From Alphaproteobacteria bacterium (lineage in GTDB: Bacteria > Pseudomonadota > Alphaproteobacteria > Rs-D84): a stretch of DNA of 64,000 bases. The stretch is taken from positions 58,516 to 122,515 of the forward strand of contig JAFZXK010000022.1 in the NCBI GenBank assembly GCA_017616785.1, given 5' to 3'. Below the pieces are notes generated by a model. The model saw only the letters and a list, made by a program, of their open reading frames with translations, did not search any database and was not told the origin of the DNA. Shown here in pieces: positions 3,271-45,390 of the stretch. The position numbers and the translations under genes were made by a program. Numbering within the stretch: position 1 is the stretch's first letter; every line of letters starts with the position of its first letter.

Positions 3271-3322
3271 TTTAACGGTTTTTATTGCGAACAAACGGCG
3301 TGCAGAATTGCACGCCTGAAAC

Positions 3323-3368
3323 TACCCCGTCTGGCTTCGCCATCCACCCCTTCACACGGTGAAGGGGA
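3323..3368. repeat. Solo C-type hairpin module (TACCCCG-hairpin-CCCCTTCACACGGTGAAGGGGA)
   Basis: Same architecture as the C modules at 26.8, 30.5, 38, 41.6 and 42.3 kb. Abuts the rpsT stop codon. Confidence 0.6.
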
Positions 3369-3629
3369 CTATGACAGTTTTGCGGCGGCACGTGTAAGGC
3401 GTGAAACCTTGCGCGATGCGCGTTTTTTAGGCATTGTTTTGCCCGCGGCCTTCATCATTTTGCTTTCGGCACTGCGCACCGCGGCGACCGCGGCGGCTTT
3501 GTCCCCGGCGGCAATCGCCGCGACGGCCTTTTTATTTTCGGTTTTAACGGCACTGCGGCGCGCGGTATTTACCGCGTTTTTCTTTGCAGTAACCAGGACT
3601 CTTTTTTTAGATGATTTGTGGTTTGCCAC
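3369..3629 (-). CDS. rpsT: 30S ribosomal protein S20
   Basis: MANHKSSKKRVLVTAKKNAVN..., an 86-aa basic Ala/Lys-rich protein typical of S20. Confidence 0.9.
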   Translation of the reverse strand: MANHKSSKKRVLVTAKKNAVNTARRSAVKTENKKAVAAIAAGDKAAAVAAVRSAESKMMKAAGKTMPKKRASRKVSRLTRAAAKLS

Positions 3630-8094: not shown

Positions 8095-9147
8095 ATGAAA
8101 AAACTTCTTGTGTTTTTTATGGTTTTATTTGGAATAAGTTTGGGCGCGATGGCAACGCCAAAGGATTATAAGGCGGCTGATGGTTTTATTTGTGCCAAGG
8201 TTGATAGTGAGGTAAAATCTGACGGGACTCCAGTAAATGCGTTGAAAGGGCAAAATGCAAAGATTCAGTTGTTTTTTGATACAGGTAGTAAAACCAGTAT
8301 AGGTTTGCATGATGGTTGCGAAGCGTTGTATAAAGAGATATATGCCGATGTGCAGAAAGTAGCGGATGATATAGAGGAGTTGGTTTATGTTGGTTCCGCA
8401 GATCAACAAAATAGAAGTGGAAACTCTGATCTTAATCGTGATTTGGCGAAACGTCGCGCAAATTATGCGTATAAAGTGCTTGGTGGCGGAATTGGTTGGA
8501 GAATACATGTCGCTGGTGATGAAGATGCCAAAACGTATTCACCGACGGTTGATAATCAGGTTTTTCGTTCAGTGAGTGTTTATGTTATTTGGCGGTTGGC
8601 ACAGTGTCCGGAAAAGTTTGTTGAAAAATTGTCTGCGTATGAAAAAGAATTGACGGATGCGTTGAGTAAATATCCAAAGGACAAAAATAAAATAGAAAAT
8701 GCACTTGCGGGTGTTAAGAAAGCAAAGGAACTTTGTGCACCGGGTAAGACATTGACGGCGGGTGAAGTTGAACAATTGTTGGATGAAGTATATGGAATGT
8801 TAATAATTGCCGGTGATGTTGTAACATCCGTTCAGGTTATAAATACAGAAATTGGCATCGATGTTTCATACCAAGAAAATTCGATTGATTTGCAATATTC
8901 AAAACTTGATAGTTTACGGCGTGGGCTTGGCCTTTCGGTTTGGCGGGATGAAGAGGGCAAGTTTAATACTGCGCGTTTGATTTCCGATTCGGTTGCTGGT
9001 GTTGTGTTGGGAACGGTTGGCGGAATTGTTACAAGTAAATTAGTAAAGAAAAATCAATTGAAAAAAGGTTTCGAAGATTTGTATTGCGCCATCGGTGGTC
9101 AGACGGTCGCAGAATACGGTGACGATTTTACGGTTGGATTAAGATAA
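8095..9147 (+). CDS. Secreted OmpA-like-domain protein with C-terminal glycine-zipper segment
   Basis: Signal peptide. IQLFFDTGS...VYVGSADQQNRSGNSDLNRDLAKRRANYAYKVL...FRSVSVYV resembles an OmpA_C peptidoglycan-binding domain. VAGVVLGTVGGIV hydrophobic segment near the C-terminus. Confidence 0.5.
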   Translation: MKKLLVFFMVLFGISLGAMATPKDYKAADGFICAKVDSEVKSDGTPVNALKGQNAKIQLFFDTGSKTSIGLHDGCEALYKEIYADVQKVADDIEELVYVGSADQQNRSGNSDLNRDLAKRRANYAYKVLGGGIGWRIHVAGDEDAKTYSPTVDNQVFRSVSVYVIWRLAQCPEKFVEKLSAYEKELTDALSKYPKDKNKIENALAGVKKAKELCAPGKTLTAGEVEQLLDEVYGMLIIAGDVVTSVQVINTEIGIDVSYQENSIDLQYSKLDSLRRGLGLSVWRDEEGKFNTARLISDSVAGVVLGTVGGIVTSKLVKKNQLKKGFEDLYCAIGGQTVAEYGDDFTVGLR

Positions 9148-9154
9148 AAAAAAT

Positions 9155-9179
9155 GGTCGCATTTGCGACCGTTTTTTTT
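9155..9179. terminator. Bidirectional intrinsic terminator
   Basis: GGTCGC-ATTT-GCGACC hairpin flanked by an A8 run upstream and a T8 run downstream, between convergent genes. Confidence 0.75.
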
Positions 9180-9591
9180 ATTTAGAATTCCTTACCTTTT
9201 GCATCCATGTGTTCCGCAATTTTAACTGTTGCTGTAAATCTGCGTATGTGGCGGCGTTCATGTCAGAGTCCAGTTTTTCAGAACATGTGCAAATGCGGCC
9301 AGTTGGATACAACCATGCCACCGGTCTTTCATTTTCGCTGTCCCAATATTCAAGAACCATATTTGCAAATTTTTTATCTTTTACCACATTGGAAAGTTCC
9401 GAATAATGTGCAACCAGACCGTTTATTCCGCGTCCAGGGAACATGTGAAAAGTTGGTTGTTTTGATGAATTGCTTACATCCACAATCGGTAACATATCGC
9501 CGGCAAGTTTGAAATGAAACAGAGTTTGTGGCGTTACGAGTTCCATATTTATGGAATATTCTTTTCTAAAAATTTGCCCGGCTTCGGCCAT
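9178..9591 (-). CDS. Hypothetical protein (137 aa)
   Basis: ATG at 9591 preceded by RBS AGGGGG. No family recognised. Confidence 0.5.
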   Translation of the reverse strand: MAEAGQIFRKEYSINMELVTPQTLFHFKLAGDMLPIVDVSNSSKQPTFHMFPGRGINGLVAHYSELSNVVKDKKFANMVLEYWDSENERPVAWLYPTGRICTCSEKLDSDMNAATYADLQQQLKLRNTWMQKVRNSK

Positions 9592-19903: not shown

Positions 19904-20020
19904 GCGACACCCCGCCCTGCGGGCACCCCTCTAGCCAGAGGGGAATTTTTTTATGTTCTGTTGCGGGCCAAAATTCCCCTCTGGCTAGAGGGGTGGCGGG
20001 TGGAACCCGCCGGGGTGTCG
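19904..20020. repeat. Full-length A-type MITE-like palindromic element (117 bp)
   Basis: Left arm GCGACACCCCGCCCTGCGGGCACCCCTCTAGCCAGAGGGGAA, centre GTTCTGTTGCGG, right arm the inverted copy ending CCGGGGTGTCG. Confidence 0.8.
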
Positions 20021-26744: not shown

Positions 26745-26806
26745 GATTTTGTTTGTTGTTGGTTGTAACGCCGTCCACACGGGCGGTGTTTTTTGTGTTG
26801 GTGGGT

Positions 26807-26908
26807 CCCCTTCTTTTCAAGAAGGGGTGCCGGGTGGAACCCGGTGGGGTAGTTTTTTACCCATACCCCGGTGCCGTTCGGCACCACCCCTTTCCGCAGG
26901 AAAGGGGA
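26807..26908. repeat. B+C composite nested-hairpin element (102 bp)
   Basis: CCCCTTCTTTTCAAGAAGGGG, hairpin, GGGGTAG, spacer, CCCATACCCCG, hairpin, CCCCTTTCCGCAGGAAAGGGG. Confidence 0.8.
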
Positions 26909-26977
26909 TTACGCCCCATTTTTCATTTGAAACATGGTTTGTTTTGTGATAGAATTGTGGAGAAAAGGAGATTTAAG

Positions 26978-30063: not shown

Positions 30064-30473
30064 TGAATAGATTTTGTGTCGCCGTTTTGATGTGCGCTTG
30101 GTCGGTTGCGGCGTTTGCGGTGCCGGCGCGGGTAGGGCACATTTTGGACGGCGATACTTTTTCCGCGGCGGTTAGTTTGGATGCGGATACAACCGTTTCG
30201 GTGCGTGTTCGTTTGCGTAATGTTGATACCCCGGAAATGAACGGCGATTGTGAATACGAACGCGCGCGTGCGGTTGCGGCGCGCGACCGACTTGCCGAAA
30301 TTATTCCGGTGGGTTCAACGGTTGAACTTAGTAATGTCAAAGATGATAAATACCTTGGTCGAATCGATGCCAATGTGAAAAACGCGGCGGGCGATGATGT
30401 CGGTGAAGTTTTAATTCGTGAAAAATTCGGCCGCAAATATAACGGCGGCCGCCGCAAGCCATGGTGTAAATAG
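30063..30473 (+). CDS. Secreted staphylococcal-nuclease-like (thermonuclease family) protein
   Basis: GDTF...VRVRLRNVDTPE...YLGRI pattern of SNase. The start overlaps the tolB stop (TAATG). Confidence 0.65.
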   Translation: MNRFCVAVLMCAWSVAAFAVPARVGHILDGDTFSAAVSLDADTTVSVRVRLRNVDTPEMNGDCEYERARAVAARDRLAEIIPVGSTVELSNVKDDKYLGRIDANVKNAAGDDVGEVLIREKFGRKYNGGRRKPWCK

Positions 30474-30474
30474 T

Positions 30475-30574
30475 CCCCTTCTTTTCAAGAAGGGGGGAAC
30501 CGCGGGACGCGGTGGGGTAGTTCAACCCATACCCCGTCCGCGTTCGCGTCCACCCCTTTCCAACGGAAAGGGGA
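30475..30574. repeat. B+C composite nested-hairpin element (100 bp)
   Basis: Same module order as 26807-26908, with different inner hairpins. Confidence 0.8.
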
Positions 30575-30581
30575 TTTAAAA

Positions 30582-37954: not shown

Positions 37955-37957
37955 AGT

Positions 37958-38058
37958 TCCCCTTTCCGTGGGAAAGGGGTCCGGCGGGATCGCCGGGGGG
38001 TATGGGTAAAATTACCCCACCGCGTTCCGCGGTCCCCCCCTTCTTGGAAAGAAGGGGA
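37958..38058. repeat. C+B composite element, inverted orientation
   Basis: TCCCCTTTCCGTGGGAAAGGGG...GGGGGGTATGGG, then TACCCCACCGCGTTCCGCGGTCCCCCCCTTCTTGGAAAGAAGGGGA. Confidence 0.8.
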
Positions 38059-38076
38059 ACAAAAAAGAAAAGAGTT

Positions 38077-38115: not shown

Positions 38116-38159
38116 AGAAAACAGAGGGGAAATCAAGATTTTAGAATTGTCGGATGGCA

Positions 38160-38278
38160 TCCCCTTTCTGGGGAAAGGGGTGGCGCCGAACGGCGACGGG
38201 GTATGGGTTAGTTTCCCGTTGCTGGGGGGAATTACCCCACCGCGTTCCGCGGTCCCCCCCTTCTTGGGAAGAAGGGGA
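38160..38278. repeat. C+B composite element, second tandem copy
   Basis: Same module order and orientation as 37958-38058. Confidence 0.8.
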
Positions 38279-38427
38279 TGGGGGTGGCTTTGCCGACAAA
38301 CATAGCAGCTTTGGTAGTAAAAAGGGGCACAATAAACCTTTGAATACCACAGAAAGCGCACCAATCCAGGTGTTTTAGTTAACACCGGGCTGGGGCAGAA
38401 CAACAACAAACGAAAAAGAGGGAAAAA

Positions 38428-39471
38428 ATGAAACTTAAGATAAAGGGACTTGTATTTGTGGGCTTTGCCGCGGCGGTGTTCGCGCAGAGTGCATCAGCAG
38501 ATCCGGTGACTATTAGGTCAGGCGCGACTCAGGAGGACGATGAAAAGACGGTGACATCAAGATGGTATGTCGACGGCAAATTCGCTGGTACCACCGGGCA
38601 AGTTATCGCCCAAGGTCCTAACCGAGGTGATACGACGTATAAAGACGTTGGTAACGACAGTAGTTATGTTGATACCACTGTAGGTAATAATGTGTTGGTT
38701 ACCGGTAAAGCCGTTGCCGAAGCAATTAATGGTTTGGATGCCAGTTTGAATATTGATGGTGATGTAACAAAGCACACACAAAAGATTGCCGTATATGATT
38801 CAAATGATTCGAGTGTTATCACTGGTTGGAAGATAATCGTTCCGGATTCGGTGGTCGCCGAAAGTGCCTCGGACATTGCCGGAACCAATGACACTGGACC
38901 GGATTCCGGTGAAGGGTCCGATCTTACAACTGCCCAGGCCGTGTATGATTTTGTGACGGGATATGCGGGTGATACATATCAACCAAAAACGCACGTTGAT
39001 ACCGGCCAAACTAACGAAACTCTAAAGGTTGGTACTGGTGAAGGTCAGTGGAGTGTTATCCAGGCGTATGATGAAAATGCGACTGGTAATCAGGGTACTA
39101 CCGGGTATATCACAATTAGTCATTCTACTTCACGTGGGGTTTATGAAATTAACCTTGATGGTAACCAAATTGCTCGGCATGGTGTTACAGATGGTACGAA
39201 CACCAATGAAATTGTGACTAGTTCGAATAAGTTGCCAACTGCGAACGCCGTGTATGAATATGCGGTGAAACAGCACTGGGATTCCACTACACAGGCCAAT
39301 AAGACCCTTGTTACGGATTCGAATGGTGTTGTGACGGTCAGTACTGTTCCGACATTACCGGGATTTGGTGACCAAGATCCGTGCAAGGTTGCCGGAGTTC
39401 ATTGTGCGTTGGTCACAAATTACGATACTACTAACGGTATTTCGTTTGAATGGACCGTCATGGCGCAATAG
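38428..39471 (+). CDS. Surface/secreted protein, family member 1 (347 aa)
   Basis: The signal peptide MKLKIKGLVFVGFAAAVFAQSASA and the C-terminus C...CALV...FEWTVMAQ are shared with the 40067 gene. Repeated xPTxxAVYxY/FV and YQPK motifs. Confidence 0.75.
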   Translation: MKLKIKGLVFVGFAAAVFAQSASADPVTIRSGATQEDDEKTVTSRWYVDGKFAGTTGQVIAQGPNRGDTTYKDVGNDSSYVDTTVGNNVLVTGKAVAEAINGLDASLNIDGDVTKHTQKIAVYDSNDSSVITGWKIIVPDSVVAESASDIAGTNDTGPDSGEGSDLTTAQAVYDFVTGYAGDTYQPKTHVDTGQTNETLKVGTGEGQWSVIQAYDENATGNQGTTGYITISHSTSRGVYEINLDGNQIARHGVTDGTNTNEIVTSSNKLPTANAVYEYAVKQHWDSTTQANKTLVTDSNGVVTVSTVPTLPGFGDQDPCKVAGVHCALVTNYDTTNGISFEWTVMAQ

Positions 39472-39557: not shown

Positions 39558-39592
39558 GATGGTGGGCTTCCTCTCCCGCCATCATTTTTTTT
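39558..39592 (+). terminator. Intrinsic terminator
   Basis: GATGGTGGG / CCCGCCATC 9-bp stem followed by A-T8. Confidence 0.75.
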
Positions 39593-39594
39593 AA

Positions 39595-39807
39595 TCCCCT
39601 TCGCGGGCGAAGGGGGGGACCGCGGGACGCGGTGGGGTAGTGGTGGCGACACCCCGTCCGCTTCGCGTTCACCCCTCTAGCCAGAGGGGAATTTGCGACA
39701 CCCCGCCCTGCGGGCACCCCTCTAGCCAGAGGGGAATTTAGGCCGCAACAGAACGCAATAAAGTTCTCCTCTGGCCAGAGGAGTACGGCGAAGCCGGGAG
39801 GTGTCGC
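39595..39807. repeat. Composite repeat cluster: B module, A half, then a full A-type element
   Basis: B at 39595-39643, A at 39645-39693, and A plus centre plus inverted arm (CTCCTCTGGCCAGAGGAG...GGAGGTGTCGC) at 39694-39807. Confidence 0.8.
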
Positions 39808-39927: not shown

Positions 39928-40066
39928 AATTCCGTGAAGGACACAAAAGGACCCATGTTCAAAATCGGCGAAACCGGCGGAAAATGTGGGGAGAGATGCG
40001 TTATGAATTCATACCCAATTGGTATCTGTTCGTGCGCAAAACAACAACAAACAAAGAGGAAAAAAA

Positions 40067-41482
40067 ATGAAAGTACAAGTGAAAGGCCTGGTCTTTGTTG
40101 GATTCGCCGCGGCTGTTTTTGCGCAAAGCGCCATGGCAGAGGGGGAGAACAAGATCGTTACATCAAAACAATATGTTGATTCCAAGATAGTCGGTACGAG
40201 TAGCAATGCTACAACTATTGACTCTGAATCATCTGATACCGATGCACCATCTATGTTAAATGTATATAAATTCGTGACTGGTCAGGTTGGTTCTGTTGAA
40301 GTTATCGGTGATAATACTTATACTACAACTACTGTTGATACTACGGGTGCCGATGCAGGAAAATTCAAGGTAAAATTGAAACAAGACCCGGCAAGTGCGA
40401 GGGCGGCGTTGACTGGTGAACTTAATAGTACAACCCATCTTCTTGGAACTCTTGACACTACTGCAGGGCAGAAACTTGTTAGTGCCTCGGCGGTCAAAGA
40501 TTTACTCGATGCGGAAACAGCTACGAACACCACGACGATAAGTTCGACATCTGAAAATGACAAGGTGCCAACATCAAAGAATGTTTATGATTTCGTGACC
40601 AATACGGTTGGTAGTTATCAACCAAAGGCGCCAACGACCGATACCACAAGTTTGTATCTTGGACATAATGGTTCGGGTAATGTCGCAGAGTGGAACAAGT
40701 TAGAGGCGGTAACTACAAATGCCCAAGCATCGACAGATTATGTTACGTTGAAATGGAATTCGACCGACAGTGCGTATGACGTTAACCTTGATAGTGGACA
40801 TATTGCGGCGACGTCTGCGCTTACTGGTACAACGGCTACTAATGATACTGGCTTGGTCACCGCGGGCAGTATCCGTTCAACAATATTACAGGCGGGTGAT
40901 ACAGCCGGTGGAACGATTAATGCGACCACTGGTGCCGTTGATACAACTGTTCCAACAACCAGGAATGTGTATGAATTCGTGACGAATTATGCCCAAGATA
41001 ATTATCAACCGAAAATCCTTGATAGTGATGCGGGTAAGGTCATGATTGGTTATAATACACAAAGTGGTACAGCGGGTAATTACACATATTCGTCTAATTG
41101 GAGCGAGTTGGTTGGTGATTATACAGTTGATGGAAATAATCAGTATATTGGTGGTTACATTGAAGTCGCTCCGAACCCAGAGAATAGCCGCGCAGAGGTT
41201 AGGTTGTTAAATGTTGGCCATACTGCTAGTGCGATTAGTTCTGCTACATCTAGTGATGCCACAAATAATAAAGACAAAATCGCATCGGCATATGCGGTTC
41301 AGCAATATGTTACTGGGCTATTGGGTGGTTTGTCGATTCCGCAACCAAGTGCGGAATGTTCCGGTACAAATCTTGATAGCGATGATGATGGTGGTTGTGC
41401 TTTGGTTATGGCGTGGGACAGCACGGCTGGTACCAATGGTAGCGGTGCGGTTACCCTTAAATGGACCAAGATGGCACAATAA
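40067..41482 (+). CDS. Surface/secreted protein, family member 2 (471 aa)
   Basis: ATG at 40067 after RBS AGAGGA. The signal peptide MKVQVKGLVFVGFAAAVFAQSAMA, VPTSKNVYDFVT / VPTTRNVYEFVT / YQPK motifs and the C-terminal C...CALV...LKWTKMAQ are shared with the 38428 gene. Confidence 0.75.
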   Translation: MKVQVKGLVFVGFAAAVFAQSAMAEGENKIVTSKQYVDSKIVGTSSNATTIDSESSDTDAPSMLNVYKFVTGQVGSVEVIGDNTYTTTTVDTTGADAGKFKVKLKQDPASARAALTGELNSTTHLLGTLDTTAGQKLVSASAVKDLLDAETATNTTTISSTSENDKVPTSKNVYDFVTNTVGSYQPKAPTTDTTSLYLGHNGSGNVAEWNKLEAVTTNAQASTDYVTLKWNSTDSAYDVNLDSGHIAATSALTGTTATNDTGLVTAGSIRSTILQAGDTAGGTINATTGAVDTTVPTTRNVYEFVTNYAQDNYQPKILDSDAGKVMIGYNTQSGTAGNYTYSSNWSELVGDYTVDGNNQYIGGYIEVAPNPENSRAEVRLLNVGHTASAISSATSSDATNNKDKIASAYAVQQYVTGLLGGLSIPQPSAECSGTNLDSDDDGGCALVMAWDSTAGTNGSGAVTLKWTKMAQ

Positions 41483-41509
41483 GTCAGATTTGTTGTTGAA
41501 TTACGCAAG

Positions 41510-41540
41510 ACAATGGCGGGTCCCCCGCCATTGTTTTTTT
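41510..41540 (+). terminator. Intrinsic terminator
   Basis: ACAATGGCGG / CCGCCATTGT stem followed by T7. Confidence 0.8.
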
Positions 41541-41545
41541 GTAGA

Positions 41546-41826
41546 TCCCCTACTTCCTAAGAAGGGGTGGCGCCGAACGGCGACGGGGTAGTTTCGCCCA
41601 TACCCCGTCTGTAATGGACCCATACCCCACCGTTTTCAACGGTCCCCCCCTTTCCACAGGAAAGGGGAATGCCCATACCCCACCGTTTTCAACGGTCCCC
41701 CCCTTTCCACAGGAAAGGGGATTGCCCATACCCCCCGGCGGTTCCGCCGGACCCCTTTCCGGGGGAAAGGGGATTAATCCCCTTCGCGGGCGAAGGGGGG
41801 GACCGCGGGACGCGGTGGGGTAGTGG
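41546..41826. repeat. Repeat array: B module, partial C, three tandem C modules, B module
   Basis: C modules at 41619-41669, 41672-41722 and 41725-41773. B modules at 41546-41593 and 41778-41826. Confidence 0.8.
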
Positions 41827-41872
41827 TAAAAAACGATTGAAAAATATTTTTTGTCTTATATGATTTCGCCAA

Positions 41873-42256
41873 ATGAAATTACCACAAAACATTTCTTTGA
41901 AACAACGGGCGCGCGAATTGCGCAAAAATTCAACTTTGGCCGAAGTCCTGTTTTGGTGCGTTGTTAAAAATCGGCAATTTTTTGGCCTCGATTTCAACCG
42001 GCAAAAAATTATCGGTAATTACATAGTCGATTTTTATTGCCCGCAATTACACCTTGTTATTGAAATCGACGGTTCATCCCACGCAAACCGTCAAGATTAT
42101 GACAGGGCGCGCGATTGGTACTTGCGATCTTTGGGGTTGCATGTGTTGCGCGTGTATGATGCAGATGTCAAAGAAAATGTCAATGATGTTTTGCGCATGG
42201 TTGTGGGATATTGCAAAGAAATAATACGTGATGTTCCGTTACCGGATGGAATGTGA
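41873..42256 (+). CDS. DUF559 (Vsr-like restriction-endonuclease fold) domain protein
   Basis: RELRKNSTLAEVLFW...GNYIVDFYCPQLHLVIEIDGSSH...D..R..YL...G..VLR is typical of DUF559 as remembered. Candidate promoter TTGAAA-16-TATGAT upstream. Confidence 0.65.
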   Translation: MKLPQNISLKQRARELRKNSTLAEVLFWCVVKNRQFFGLDFNRQKIIGNYIVDFYCPQLHLVIEIDGSSHANRQDYDRARDWYLRSLGLHVLRVYDADVKENVNDVLRMVVGYCKEIIRDVPLPDGM

Positions 42257-42258
42257 AA

Positions 42259-42363
42259 CCCATACCCCGTCGCCGTTCGGCGCCACCCCTTTCCACAGGA
42301 AAAGGGGATTGCCCATACCCCCCGGCGGTTCCGCCGGACCCCTTTCCGGGGGAAAGGGGATTA
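42259..42363. repeat. Two tandem C modules; the last 60 nt are identical to 41717-41776
   Basis: GGGGATTGCCCATACCCCCCGGCGGTTCCGCCGGACCCCTTTCCGGGGGAAAGGGGATTA occurs on both sides of the DUF559 gene. Its end overlaps the clpB stop codon. Confidence 0.85.
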
Positions 42364-44418
42364 TTTCACCATCAAATCTTTTCCGTGGGTTGTGATATGG
42401 ACGGTGTTGCCTTCGGTAATTGCGTCCGAAAGTATAAGGTCCGCAATTTTATCTTCGACCATTGATGTTATCAATCTTTTCAATGGGCGCGCGCCGAACA
42501 CCGGATCATATCCATGTTCACCAAGCCACTTTATCGCCGTGTCCGACACATCCAAATCTATGCGGCGCGCCGCAAGCCGTGCACGCAATCCGCGCAATTG
42601 AATCTTTACGATGTCCGCCATCACGTCTTTGCCCAGTTGGTTAAAGAATATGATTTCATCAATCCGGTTGATGAATTCCGGTCGGAACTGTTTGCGAACC
42701 GCGTTCATGTCGGGCAGGTTACTGGTCATAATTATTATCGTGTTCGTAAAGTTCACAACATGGCCTTGGCCGTCCGTTAAACGTCCGTCGTCCAATATTT
42801 GCAAGAACACATTGAACACGTCCGGGTTCGCCTTTTCGATTTCGTCGAACAATAAAACTTGGTACGGGCGACGACGCACAGATTCCGTCAGCACGCCGCC
42901 TTGGTCATAGCCCACATATCCCGGGGGTGCGCCGATTAAACGCGCGACCGAATGCGGTTCCATATATTCACTCATGTCAATTCGCGTCATTGCGGTGTCG
43001 TCGTTAAACAGGTATTCCGCCAATGCCTTGGCGACCTCGGTCTTACCCACGCCGGTGGGGCCCAGGAACATGAAACTGCCCGACGGCCGGCGCGGGTCCG
43101 ACAGACCCGCACGCGAACGACGGATTGCACGCGACACGACCGAAAGCGCTTCGTCTTGGCCGACAACGCGTTTGCGCAATTCGTCTTCGATATTCAAGAG
43201 TTTCGATTGTTCTGCGACCGAAAGCCGTTCCGCCGGGACGCCGGTCCATTTGCTGACCACCGCCGCGATGTGTTCTGGTAAAACCGTTTTGTATTCGCGC
43301 GATTCGGTGTTCATCTTTTTGATTTTTTCTTCCAATTCAGGAATTTTCCCGTATTGCAGTGCGGATGCCTTTTCATAGTCGCCGTTGCGCATTGCGGATG
43401 CAACCTCGGCCTTGGCCGCGTCAAGTGCCGCCATCGCGTCCGAAAGCCCGCGCATTTTTTCCTGTTCCGCGCGCCACTTTGCCGTCATTTCTTCGGATTT
43501 TTTCGTCGTTTCCGCAATAAGTTTTTCAAGGTCGGCAAGGCGTTTTTTGGATTCTTCGTCTTTTTCTTTCTTTAACGCCTGTTGCTCTATTTTAAGTTGC
43601 ATTAAATGCCGGTCAACTTCGTCCAGTTCTTCGGGTTTCGACGCAACCTCTATACGGACACGCGCCGCCGCTTCGTCAATAAGGTCGATGGCCTTGTCCG
43701 GCAAAAACCGGTCCGTGATATAACGATTCGATAACCGCACCGCCGCAACAAGCGCACTGTCCGAAATGCGAACACCATGGTGGCCTTCGTATTTTTCTTT
43801 TAGTCCGCGCAGAATCGAAATCGTGTCGTCAACCGTCGGTTCGTCGATATAGACCGGTTGAAAACGCCGCGCAAGCGCCGGGTCTTTTTCAATGTATTGC
43901 CGGTATTCGTCGAGTGTCGTCGCGCCCAAGCAATGCAATTCGCCCCGCGCAAGCATTGGCTTTATCAGGTTTCCGGCGTCCATACTGCCTTCGCCTTTGC
44001 CCGCACCGACCAGTGTGTGCAATTCATCGATGAACAAAATTATGTCGCCGTTGGAATCTTTGACCGCCTTTAGTATCGCCTTGAACCGCGCTTCGAATTG
44101 GCCGCGGAACATCGCGCCCGCCATTAATGCGCCCATGTCGAGTGACAATAGTTTCTTGTTCTGTAAATTTTCCGGAATGTCGCGCGAAATGATGCGTTCC
44201 GCCAATCCTTCGACAATCGCCGTTTTACCAACGCCGGGATTACCAATCAAAACCGGGTTATTTTTCGTGCGGCGCGAAAGAACCTGAATCGTGCGGCGAA
44301 TTTCTTCGTCGCGGCCGATTACCGGGTCAAGTTTCCCGTCCGCCGCGAGTTTCGTAAAATCAGTCGTATATTTCGCAATCGCCTGGGCCGGGGTTTCTTG
44401 CATTTCTTCTGGATTCAT
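42361..44418 (-). CDS. clpB: ClpB-type AAA+ disaggregase lacking the N-terminal domain
   Basis: Two AAA+ modules ([15 protein letters not shown]; [15 protein letters not shown]) with a middle coiled coil. Begins at the equivalent of E. coli ClpB residue ~150. Confidence 0.88.
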
Positions 44419-45270: not shown

Positions 45271-45390
45271 CGACACCCCGTCCGCTTCGCGGCCACCCCT
45301 CTAGCCAGAGGGGAACTTTGTTGCGTTCTGTTGCAGGAGAAAATTCTCCTCTGGCCAGAGGAGTACGGTGTGAAACACCGGGAGGTGTCG
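45271..45390. repeat. Full-length A-type MITE-like element (120 bp)
   Basis: CGACACCCCG...CCCCTCTAGCCAGAGGGGAA, centre GTTCTGTTGCAGG, then CTCCTCTGGCCAGAGGAG...GGAGGTGTCG. Confidence 0.85.

Follow-up and report, generated by a model that had tools for sequence, protein, structure and literature searches.

REPtrons pair a low-copy nuclease gene, set between inverted hairpin repeats, with many gene-less head-to-head dimers (REPINs) of repetitive extragenic palindromic (REP) sequences, which lie scattered through intergenic DNA (PMC3116915, PMC3337134). Here we describe a locus of comparable design in a 64,000-nucleotide (nt) stretch of alphaproteobacterial DNA, which we call the window and which corresponds to contig C11:58516-122515 of a genome labelled G000 (1.06 Mb, 43% G+C, 94% complete); this genome falls, with its relatives, in Candidatus Enterousia, a group of gut Alphaproteobacteria. 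An array of ~52-nt G+C-rich units surrounds a 127-codon open reading frame (ORF) of the DUF559 family, between a secreted-protein gene and the 3' end of clpB. We propose that positions 41777-42311 of the window are probably a selfish mobile nuclease cassette, with the gene-less modules as its miniature, non-autonomous derivatives. A unit that consists of the gene plus its ends recurs around DUF559 homologues in many phyla, it stands at different sites in related genomes beside orthologous empty sites, and it co-occurs with gene-less modules. The cassette family appears to be undescribed, with 41777-42311 as a free-standing, promoter-bearing member; a description of a hairpin-bounded DUF559 cassette was not found in open-access papers and preprints.

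The resemblance to REPtrons and REPINs is considerable. The nuclease gene is present in low copy number between inverted hairpin repeats, gene-less head-to-head dimers are numerous and intergenic, and stems vary in sequence while their pairing is kept. The enzyme, however, is a PD-(D/E)xK protein (DUF559) rather than an HUH/Y1 REP-associated tyrosine transposase (RAYT), the ends are double hairpins with C4/G4 clamps, and the cassette is spread across phyla, whereas REPtrons are inherited mostly vertically. A genome search of G000 for the Y1 domain (PF01797, RAYT) gave no match, although control genomes do match, and no rve transposase was found in the same genome. A REP-like GTAG polarity was considered and rejected: GTAG here lies 3' of the hairpin, opposite to its position in REPs.

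The CGTC-tagged REPs, which include Rickettsia RPE-4 and RPE-6 (the RPE-like repeats) and Neisseria dRS3, offer a second comparison. They are palindromic, have their main distribution in Alphaproteobacteria, usually form head-to-head dimers, lie within genes in some cases, and have no known dedicated transposase (PMC3733652; Di Nocera et al., 2013). As described, they consist of an unpaired CGTC tag, an 8-9-bp stem with A-T first pairs, a 4-5-nt loop and a CCA tail. An arrangement of the form CCCC-GTC..stem..CCA-CCCC is seen in 14 of the 63 hairpin-1 units of G000 and in 48 of the 151 hairpin-1 units of the loci analysed below, a likeness that we treat as a lead only. The stems here measure 3-7 bp rather than 8-9 bp, the A-T first pairs are lacking, and the hairpin is always coupled to a second conserved one.

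Vsr-like EDxHD homing endonucleases such as I-Bth0305I share the Vsr-like fold, and they too are small selfish genes that invade host loci, either free-standing or embedded (PMC3239194, PMC2677866). Unlike the present protein, they are multidomain enzymes with an EDxHD motif that reside at phage intron or split-intein loci, and they have neither terminal hairpins nor gene-less derivatives. Here the motif is E-x-D-x3-H, the 127-residue DUF559 core carries no extra domain and the locus is intergenic. An integron gene cassette, which has a single attC at its 3' end and lies near an IntI integrase with attI, differs in anatomy, since the present gene has hairpins in inverted orientation to its left and right and forms a solitary cassette, with a surface-protein gene on one side and clpB on the other; no search aimed at IntI was made. 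Fungal mitochondria offer a further parallel in the double-hairpin elements of Allomyces and in GC clusters: these short, G+C-rich double hairpins have proliferated in an A+T-richer genome. They adjoin mobile endonuclease ORFs, and their insertions can carry a replacement for the 3' end of the host gene. They differ from the modules described here in being organellar, in sequence and in the endonuclease family involved, and we know of no fixed 'hairpin - gene - hairpin' cassette among them.

Anatomy of the locus and its nuclease

The ORF at 41873-42256 (forward strand) had been called a DUF559 nuclease-fold gene in an initial annotation made from the sequence alone, and profile comparison bears this out: it matches Pfam DUF559 (PF04480) with 113.1 bits (cut-off 20.6; E = 7.3e-33) over profile positions 3-105 of 109. 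The closest solved structure is PDB 3HRL, an endonuclease-like protein of Neisseria gonorrhoeae (E = 1.6e-18); at E <= 0.01, 3HRL was matched and 3R3P was not. The catalytic residues of the fold are present. D53, E64, D66 and H70, together with the block N49-C56, show 98-100% conservation across an alignment of 81 sequences, none of which contains a stop codon, and the catalytic motif reads E64-I-D66-G-S-S-H70. Judged from this alignment, the gene is intact and evidently under purifying selection, and the protein, with its predicted catalytic core in place, is assigned to the Vsr-like clade of the PD-(D/E)xK superfamily. DUF559, Vsr (1CW0), 3HRL and I-Bth0305I (3R3P) have been grouped in one clade of that superfamily (PMC3424549).

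The gene is bounded by B2 and C' modules. B2 (41777-41830, reverse strand) has the form AATCCCCTTCGC..GCGAAGGGG - hairpin 1 - GGGGTAGTGGT and makes the left end of the cassette; C' (42259-42311, forward strand) reads CCCATACCCC - hairpin 1 - hairpin 2 - ATT, begins 2 nt 3' of the DUF559 stop codon and makes the right end. Between B2 and the gene lies a pair of sigma-70-like promoter hexamers, TTGAAA-16-TATGAT (41837-41864, forward strand), identified by consensus match only (10 of 12 positions), which ends 9 nt 5' of the ATG. A similar tract is present in the related genome G012 and absent in G019 and in the loci L040 and L067, where the ATG directly follows the B module. The cassette, B2 + gene + C', is 535 bp long with inverted ~52-nt double-hairpin ends, and the gene occupies exactly the position, between inverted B2 and C units, that a short spacer holds in the gene-less pairs. 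The proposal that one B module plus the gene forms the mobile unit must be amended accordingly, as C' belongs to it.

Immediately outside the outer ends of B2 and C' stand the two copies of a further module, C* (41725-41776 and 42312-42363, both forward strand). The right-hand copy overlaps the clpB stop codon (42361-42363, opposite strand) with its final 3 nt; the left-hand copy folds into two hairpins (DNA free energy, dG, -16.9 kcal/mol), and C* hairpin 2 scores as terminator-like. The 60-nt identity first noticed between 41717-41776 and 42304-42363 holds and extends to a perfect direct repeat of 63 nt (41714-41776 and 42301-42363), with similarity continuing upstream across one indel. Left of the cassette, the array begins with B1 (41546-41596, reverse strand; a double hairpin in the ...GGGGTAGT orientation), followed by a truncated C module (CCCATACCCCGTCTGTAATGGA; 41597-41618, forward strand) and two tandem C modules of 53 nt that are 98% identical (41619-41671 and 41672-41724, forward strand). 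The order, B, partial C, C, C, C*, B, promoter, DUF559, C, C*, is the one given initially. The first hairpin of B1 is perfectly complementary to that of C', and a perfect 29-nt inverted repeat joins 41562-41590 to 42263-42291; neither this repeat nor the overlap of C* with the clpB stop codon had been remarked on initially. Elsewhere in the genome, C modules that are identical to one another are rare.

Conservation of the gene-plus-ends unit

A search across one genome per species yielded at least 588 relatives; we analysed the 80 best loci, which represent more than 15 phyla (labels beginning with L denote loci, those with G genomes). In 49 of 79 loci the two flanks share an inverted repeat that scores above the 99th percentile of control positions with the same geometry, and in 22 of 79 a direct repeat passes that threshold. 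By far the commonest layout among the 79 is hairpin 2 - hairpin 1 - gene - hairpin 1 - hairpin 2, with an arm consensus of AATTCCCCTCC..GGAGGGG - hairpin 1 - GGGGTGGT / gene / ACCACCCC - hairpin 1 - CCCCTCC..GGAGGGGAATT. On the right side the norm is gene, then AC(C/T)ACCCC - hairpin 1 - hairpin 2; upstream, GGGGT[A/G/T]G occurs within ~200 nt in 66 of the 80 loci. There are two end types, GGGGTGG/CCCCTCC and GGGGTAG/CCCCTTC, and they cluster on the protein tree: 5 changes suffice, compared with 13 in shuffles, and 0 of 500 shuffles were as low. The query protein falls within a gut-alphaproteobacterial clade (support 89/80), and elsewhere the tree mixes phyla on short branches, with host-incongruent groupings.

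In the closest Enterousia homologues (G012, G019, L023, L040 and L067) the same ends directly abut the start and stop codons. The G019 copy, for example, reads ...CGAAGGGG-hairpin 1-GGGGTAGTGGTAA-ATG...TAA-CCACTACCCC-hairpin 1-CCCCTTCGC..., and a B2-type end also lies upstream of DUF559 in L005, L023, L040 and L067. The initial annotation had left open whether the gene inserted with or into the repeats or whether the array expanded around it; the evidence favours insertion together with the repeats.

Whole C-spacer-B units are repeated on both sides of the gene in L041, L058 and L085. Together with tandem copies in G019, these repeats indicate that duplication around the ends is a recurring by-product. 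The G019 copies take the form of a tandem 148-nt 'B2 module + first ~30 codons' 5' of the intact gene, seen in L005 (G019:C2:1-1000) and L022 (the end of G019:C31). Downstream of the G019 cassette is an array of hairpin 2 plus spacer with a 72-nt period. The whole arrangement in G019 may be partly an assembly effect at contig ends.

An Azospirillum brasilense copy has C/G-clamped hairpin repeats on its upstream side. In N. gonorrhoeae, the 3HRL gene is flanked by ~110-nt repeats that contain C/G-clamped hairpins; this locus resembles ours in having hairpin-containing repeats around the gene and differs in that the repeats are direct and belong to a different sequence family. At L169 (NZ_CP119142.1 48978-50516) the repeats around the 3HRL gene carry CCCTCTCCC..GGGAGAGAG hairpins, and motifs resembling the DNA uptake sequence also flank the gene; NZ_CP119142.1 itself is a 2.17-Mb replicon that is filed as a plasmid in PLSDB. 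Cultured carriers of the gene include A. brasilense, Pseudanabaena, Nitrosomonas mobilis and Weeksella, which makes the cassette idea directly testable.

Occupied and empty sites

DUF559 genes are patchily distributed in the genus, being present in 12 of 25 genomes, and in G000 the genes that flank alphaproteobacterial cassettes are found at several separate locations. At L040, B2, gene and C lie just 3' of a host stop codon, with a perfect 54-nt duplication of host sequence exactly outside both ends; the orthologous site in G000 (C5, ~12060) is empty and holds a plain stop codon plus terminator. L067, L029 and L042 occupy a common site at which 38-49 nt of the host gene 3' end are duplicated, and the duplicates have diverged progressively (1, 4 and ~6 differences). 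The orthologous site in G000 (C11, ~8970-9590) is again empty. At L067 (2930-2960) the host ORF runs 4 extra codons into B2 and ends at a TAA in the hairpin-2 loop (CGCTAAGCG), and the displaced original host 3' end and terminator follow the cassette.

At L023 the cassette stands directly 3' of the stop codon of the orthologue of G000:C9:31459-32811. A 'host 3' end + B2' segment is duplicated there, and at the identical nucleotide position G000 carries a pair without the gene. Pairs without a gene also vary in occupancy. The pair at 30471-30577 of the window begins 4 nt 3' of a stop codon and precedes a terminator. Its site is empty in 27 of 30 species, and G046 carries there a different single unit, directly 3' of the stop codon. 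The gene-less modules are gained independently.

Modules without a gene

Module motifs match the window 8 and 10 times, compared with 0.00 and 0.06 matches expected in shuffles. Across the genome, 63 units share one architecture, xTACCCC - hairpin 1 (variable) - CCCCTT - hairpin 2 - AAGGGG - A(T/A)T, in the subtypes C (CCCATACCCC ... CCCCTTTCCnnnGGAAAGGGG), B1 (AAACTACCCC ... CCCCTTCTTgaaaAAGAAGGGG) and B2 (CCACTACCCC ... CCCCTTCGCnnnGCGAAGGGG). A second, related family, which we call queA-type, has the ends GGGGTGTCG / CGACACCCC and the hairpin 2 CCCCTCTrGCCAGAGGGG; it was found with relaxed patterns and is missed by an nhmmer model of C modules. Including it brings the total in G000 to ~80. 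The strict pattern alone yields 58 matches in G000 and 7 or fewer in relatives, which makes G000 the genome of greatest expansion for this module family. A reduced genome of 1 Mb can still undergo a burst of repeat proliferation. An Rfam search gave no credible family, the best match, Corio-PBP, reaching 24 bits where the gathering score is 63.5.

Both hairpins are maintained as structures. Hairpin 2 shows compensatory changes between subtypes. The 63 units contain 45 different versions of hairpin 1, of which 44 retain the ability to fold, with a mean DNA dG of -5.0 kcal/mol as against -1.3 when shuffled, so that the stem is retained despite sequence variation. Units were folded singly for this purpose because MAFFT with RNAalifold mis-registered hairpin 1 and recovered hairpin 2 only.

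The units of G000 are arranged in 22 head-to-head pairs of 105-139 nt (...GGGGTAGT-TTTT-ACCCATACCCC...) and 11 single modules; tail-to-tail junctions read GGGGATTAATCCCC. Gene-less pairs typically lie between a stop codon and a terminator. As in miniature inverted-repeat transposable elements (MITEs), their modules match the ends of the gene-bearing element, being of the same B and C types. Short target-site duplications of the kind expected of MITEs are not apparent, as a flanking direct repeat is present at 1 of 35 clusters; duplications of 2-4 nt cannot be called at all, because the AAT/ATT ends of the modules are palindromic. We considered whether gene-less pairs of the form B2-hp3-C are simple internal deletions of the cassette and found no support for this, since the cassette lacks the GGCGCGAAAGCGCC hairpin that lies at their centre.

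Modules and nuclease genes occur together. Two or more modules are found in 10 of the 12 genus genomes that carry DUF559 and in 3 of the 13 that lack it (Fisher p = 0.005, uncorrected for phylogeny), an association that is partly trivial because each cassette brings two modules of its own. In G019, all 7 modules are at the DUF559 gene. Whether other DUF559 copies would be associated with repeats had been raised at the outset, and the second copy in G000 is: it sits in frame inside a 594-codon ORF, taken as queA, and is bracketed by modules of the second family. The suggestion that the nuclease acts on these hairpins, first put forward as inference, has gained much in associative support from the G019 modules, the co-occurrence statistic, the matching of end types to the protein tree, the lack of a Y1/RAYT or rve transposase match in the genome and the conserved catalytic residues; the functional link itself we still infer. 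In another genome of the genus, G007, 27 generic GGGGTGG/CCCCTCC modules accompany 2 DUF559 copies, a second, independent expansion of modules.

Origin of the locus

We suggest that an array of modules already lay just beyond the clpB stop codon when the cassette inserted into it, and that at insertion the 52-nt C* module became duplicated on both sides of the cassette. The C* repeat is read as an insertion duplication because C* abuts the cassette ends, because the duplications at L040 and L067 do likewise, and because identical C units are rare. Staggered breaks ~50 nt apart, followed by fill-in, could produce such a duplication. Alternatively, a circular or incoming cassette could have recombined with an identical resident module through a single crossover of the RecA type, and this homologous-capture route would also permit precise excision. 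The nuclease would recognise and nick the structured ends or their junctions, and the 58-80 gene-less modules would be REPIN- or MITE-like derivatives that are now, or once were, mobilised in trans.

Several points weigh against a mobile cassette with derivative modules. An exact-protein look-up placed the identical protein on 7 metagenome contigs with the same surroundings every time, and thus gave no sign of current movement at this locus. A true empty site for the clpB locus was not found, as clpB synteny is not conserved in relatives; downstream of clpB, a terminator and grpE follow in G045, and in G015 there are B2-type modules and no gene. The C* duplication could itself be a local segmental duplication or a product of gene conversion within the array rather than an insertion footprint. 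Long flanking duplications are essentially absent at gene-less pairs (1 of 35 clusters has one), which may therefore spread differently from the gene-bearing cassette. The number of modules also tracks the matching gene poorly: G012 and G019 have the gene and only 5-9 modules, and G020 and G015 hold 9-16 modules without DUF559. Finally, nothing obvious in a 127-residue nuclease core would transfer or ligate strands, which would leave most of the work to repair or recombination by the host.

Among other explanations, the one that survives best treats the modules as host REP-like elements, with roles as terminators, mRNA stabilisers or nucleoid sites, between existing pairs of which (B and C) a free-standing, homing-type DUF559 gene preferentially inserts or is retained. 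The modules would then be targets spread by another process and not the cassette's own ends. That gene-less pairs are far more numerous than genes, that modules persist without DUF559 in G020 and G015, and that the L023 cassette stands at the position of a gene-less pair in G000 all speak for this explanation, as do the terminator-like placement of gene-less pairs between stop codon and terminator and the terminator-like score of C* hairpin 2. We nevertheless consider this explanation unlikely. Unrelated phyla carry the gene with these very end sequences, the type of which follows the protein tree, every module in G019 is at the gene, and the L040 and L067 cassettes, ends included, occupy what in G000 is plain host sequence without an earlier pair.

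We give a smaller chance to a DUF559 gene that has long resided 3' of clpB, around which the modules and the 63-nt repeat arose by slippage, unequal crossing-over or gene conversion among tandem modules, in which case the repeat would carry no information on insertion. The tandem C-C-C* units, with their 53-nt period, do adjoin the gene, and the locus is fixed in 7 of 7 metagenome contigs. Local duplication around modules is also common, as the 'B + first 30 codons' of G019 and the 'host 3' end + B2' of L023 illustrate. However, the two copies of the duplicated unit lie exactly against the outer ends of B2 and C', the duplicated host sequences of L040 and L067, which are not part of any module, do likewise, and few other C modules of the genome are identical. 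The B..gene..C layout shared across phyla would, moreover, be left unexplained.

A housekeeping or defence role, in which a Vsr-type mismatch-repair or restriction-like nuclease is accompanied by regulatory repeats (translational hairpins, a programmed inversion switch or insulators) and gene and repeats do not move as a unit, seems very improbable: DUF559 does belong to the Vsr clade of PD-(D/E)xK enzymes (PMC3424549) and a role in translational regulation has been ascribed to hairpins 5' of genes for Vsr-like endonucleases (PMC2677866), but the distribution in the genus is patchy, the site differs by species, with empty orthologous sites and flanking duplications, the protein tree holds host-incongruent groupings, dozens of copies have no gene, no cytosine methyltransferase is evident among the adjacent ORFs (the scanned neighbours being a Pfam-negative surface protein and clpB), and the enrichment of DUF559 among predicted inversions, discussed below, is to be expected from the inverted repeats of a cassette alone.

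The mobile cassette also invites a broader and more speculative proposal. DUF559 cassettes could be an unrecognised, phylum-spanning class of mobile element that acts on its own ends, and the missing partner of the orphan CGTC/RPE-like repeats. Members of this class would rely on a minimal Vsr-like PD-(D/E)xK nuclease with no DDE, HUH or recombinase partner and would generate unusually long target duplications of ~40-60 nt. We regard this joint claim as tentative, a possibility worth pursuing rather than a probable one. DUF559 is a very common domain of unknown function, with at least 588 confirmed loci in a single scan of species representatives, and thousands of DUF559 annotations would gain a function if the claim were true. 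It would explain the origin of a class of palindromic repeats, Rickettsia RPE-like and CGTC-type, whose mobilising enzyme is not known, and it would add a very small, structure-recognising nuclease to the toolbox. It would also account for the presence of DUF559 in screens for programmed inversions. In one systematic screen, DUF559 proteins were enriched 14-fold among predicted programmed inversions (PMC9881135), and the inverted repeats that the cassette carries would explain this enrichment.

Neighbouring genes and other module clusters

The host gene whose 3' end abuts the array, clpB, occupies 42361-44418 (reverse strand). In G000 it has no canonical intrinsic terminator and is followed by two C modules alone, in contrast to the clpB gene of G045, which has a plain hairpin-plus-T-run terminator and then a convergent grpE (L104 2160-2190, compared with window 42259-42363). 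The C modules may substitute as the clpB terminator. On the other side of the array lies a gene for a variable secreted or surface protein (40019-41482, forward strand) with its own terminator at ~41508-41540; a Pfam search with this protein gave no match.

Other modules are found throughout the window. An identical copy of the cassette's B2 lies at 39592-39643, in a cluster that spans 39592-39734 (C11:98107-98249). It stands head-to-head with second-family units (GGGGTGTCG/CCCCTCTAGCCAGAGGGG), which shows that the two families form hybrid clusters. Further singles and pairs are located at 3319-3371, 19909-20016, 26803-26911, 30471-30577 (the pair discussed above), 37955-38061, 38157-38281 and 45275-45313, and many of these lie between variable secreted-protein genes.

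Elsewhere in G000, three module copies (C2:20154-20260, C18:50482-50591 and C24:6944-6995) have the identical flank GAATTCATTTGACGATTGAAAAATTTGAAAAGTGTTGTCATT and were therefore copied within a larger repeated segment, perhaps a multicopy secreted-protein operon or leader. Within the window, the secreted proteins encoded at 38428-39471 and 40019-41482 are paralogous. The signal peptide (KGLVFVGFAAAVFAQSA) is common to both, as is the C-terminal motif ...W(T)xMAQ; Pfam matches neither protein, and a module cluster lies 3' of each gene.

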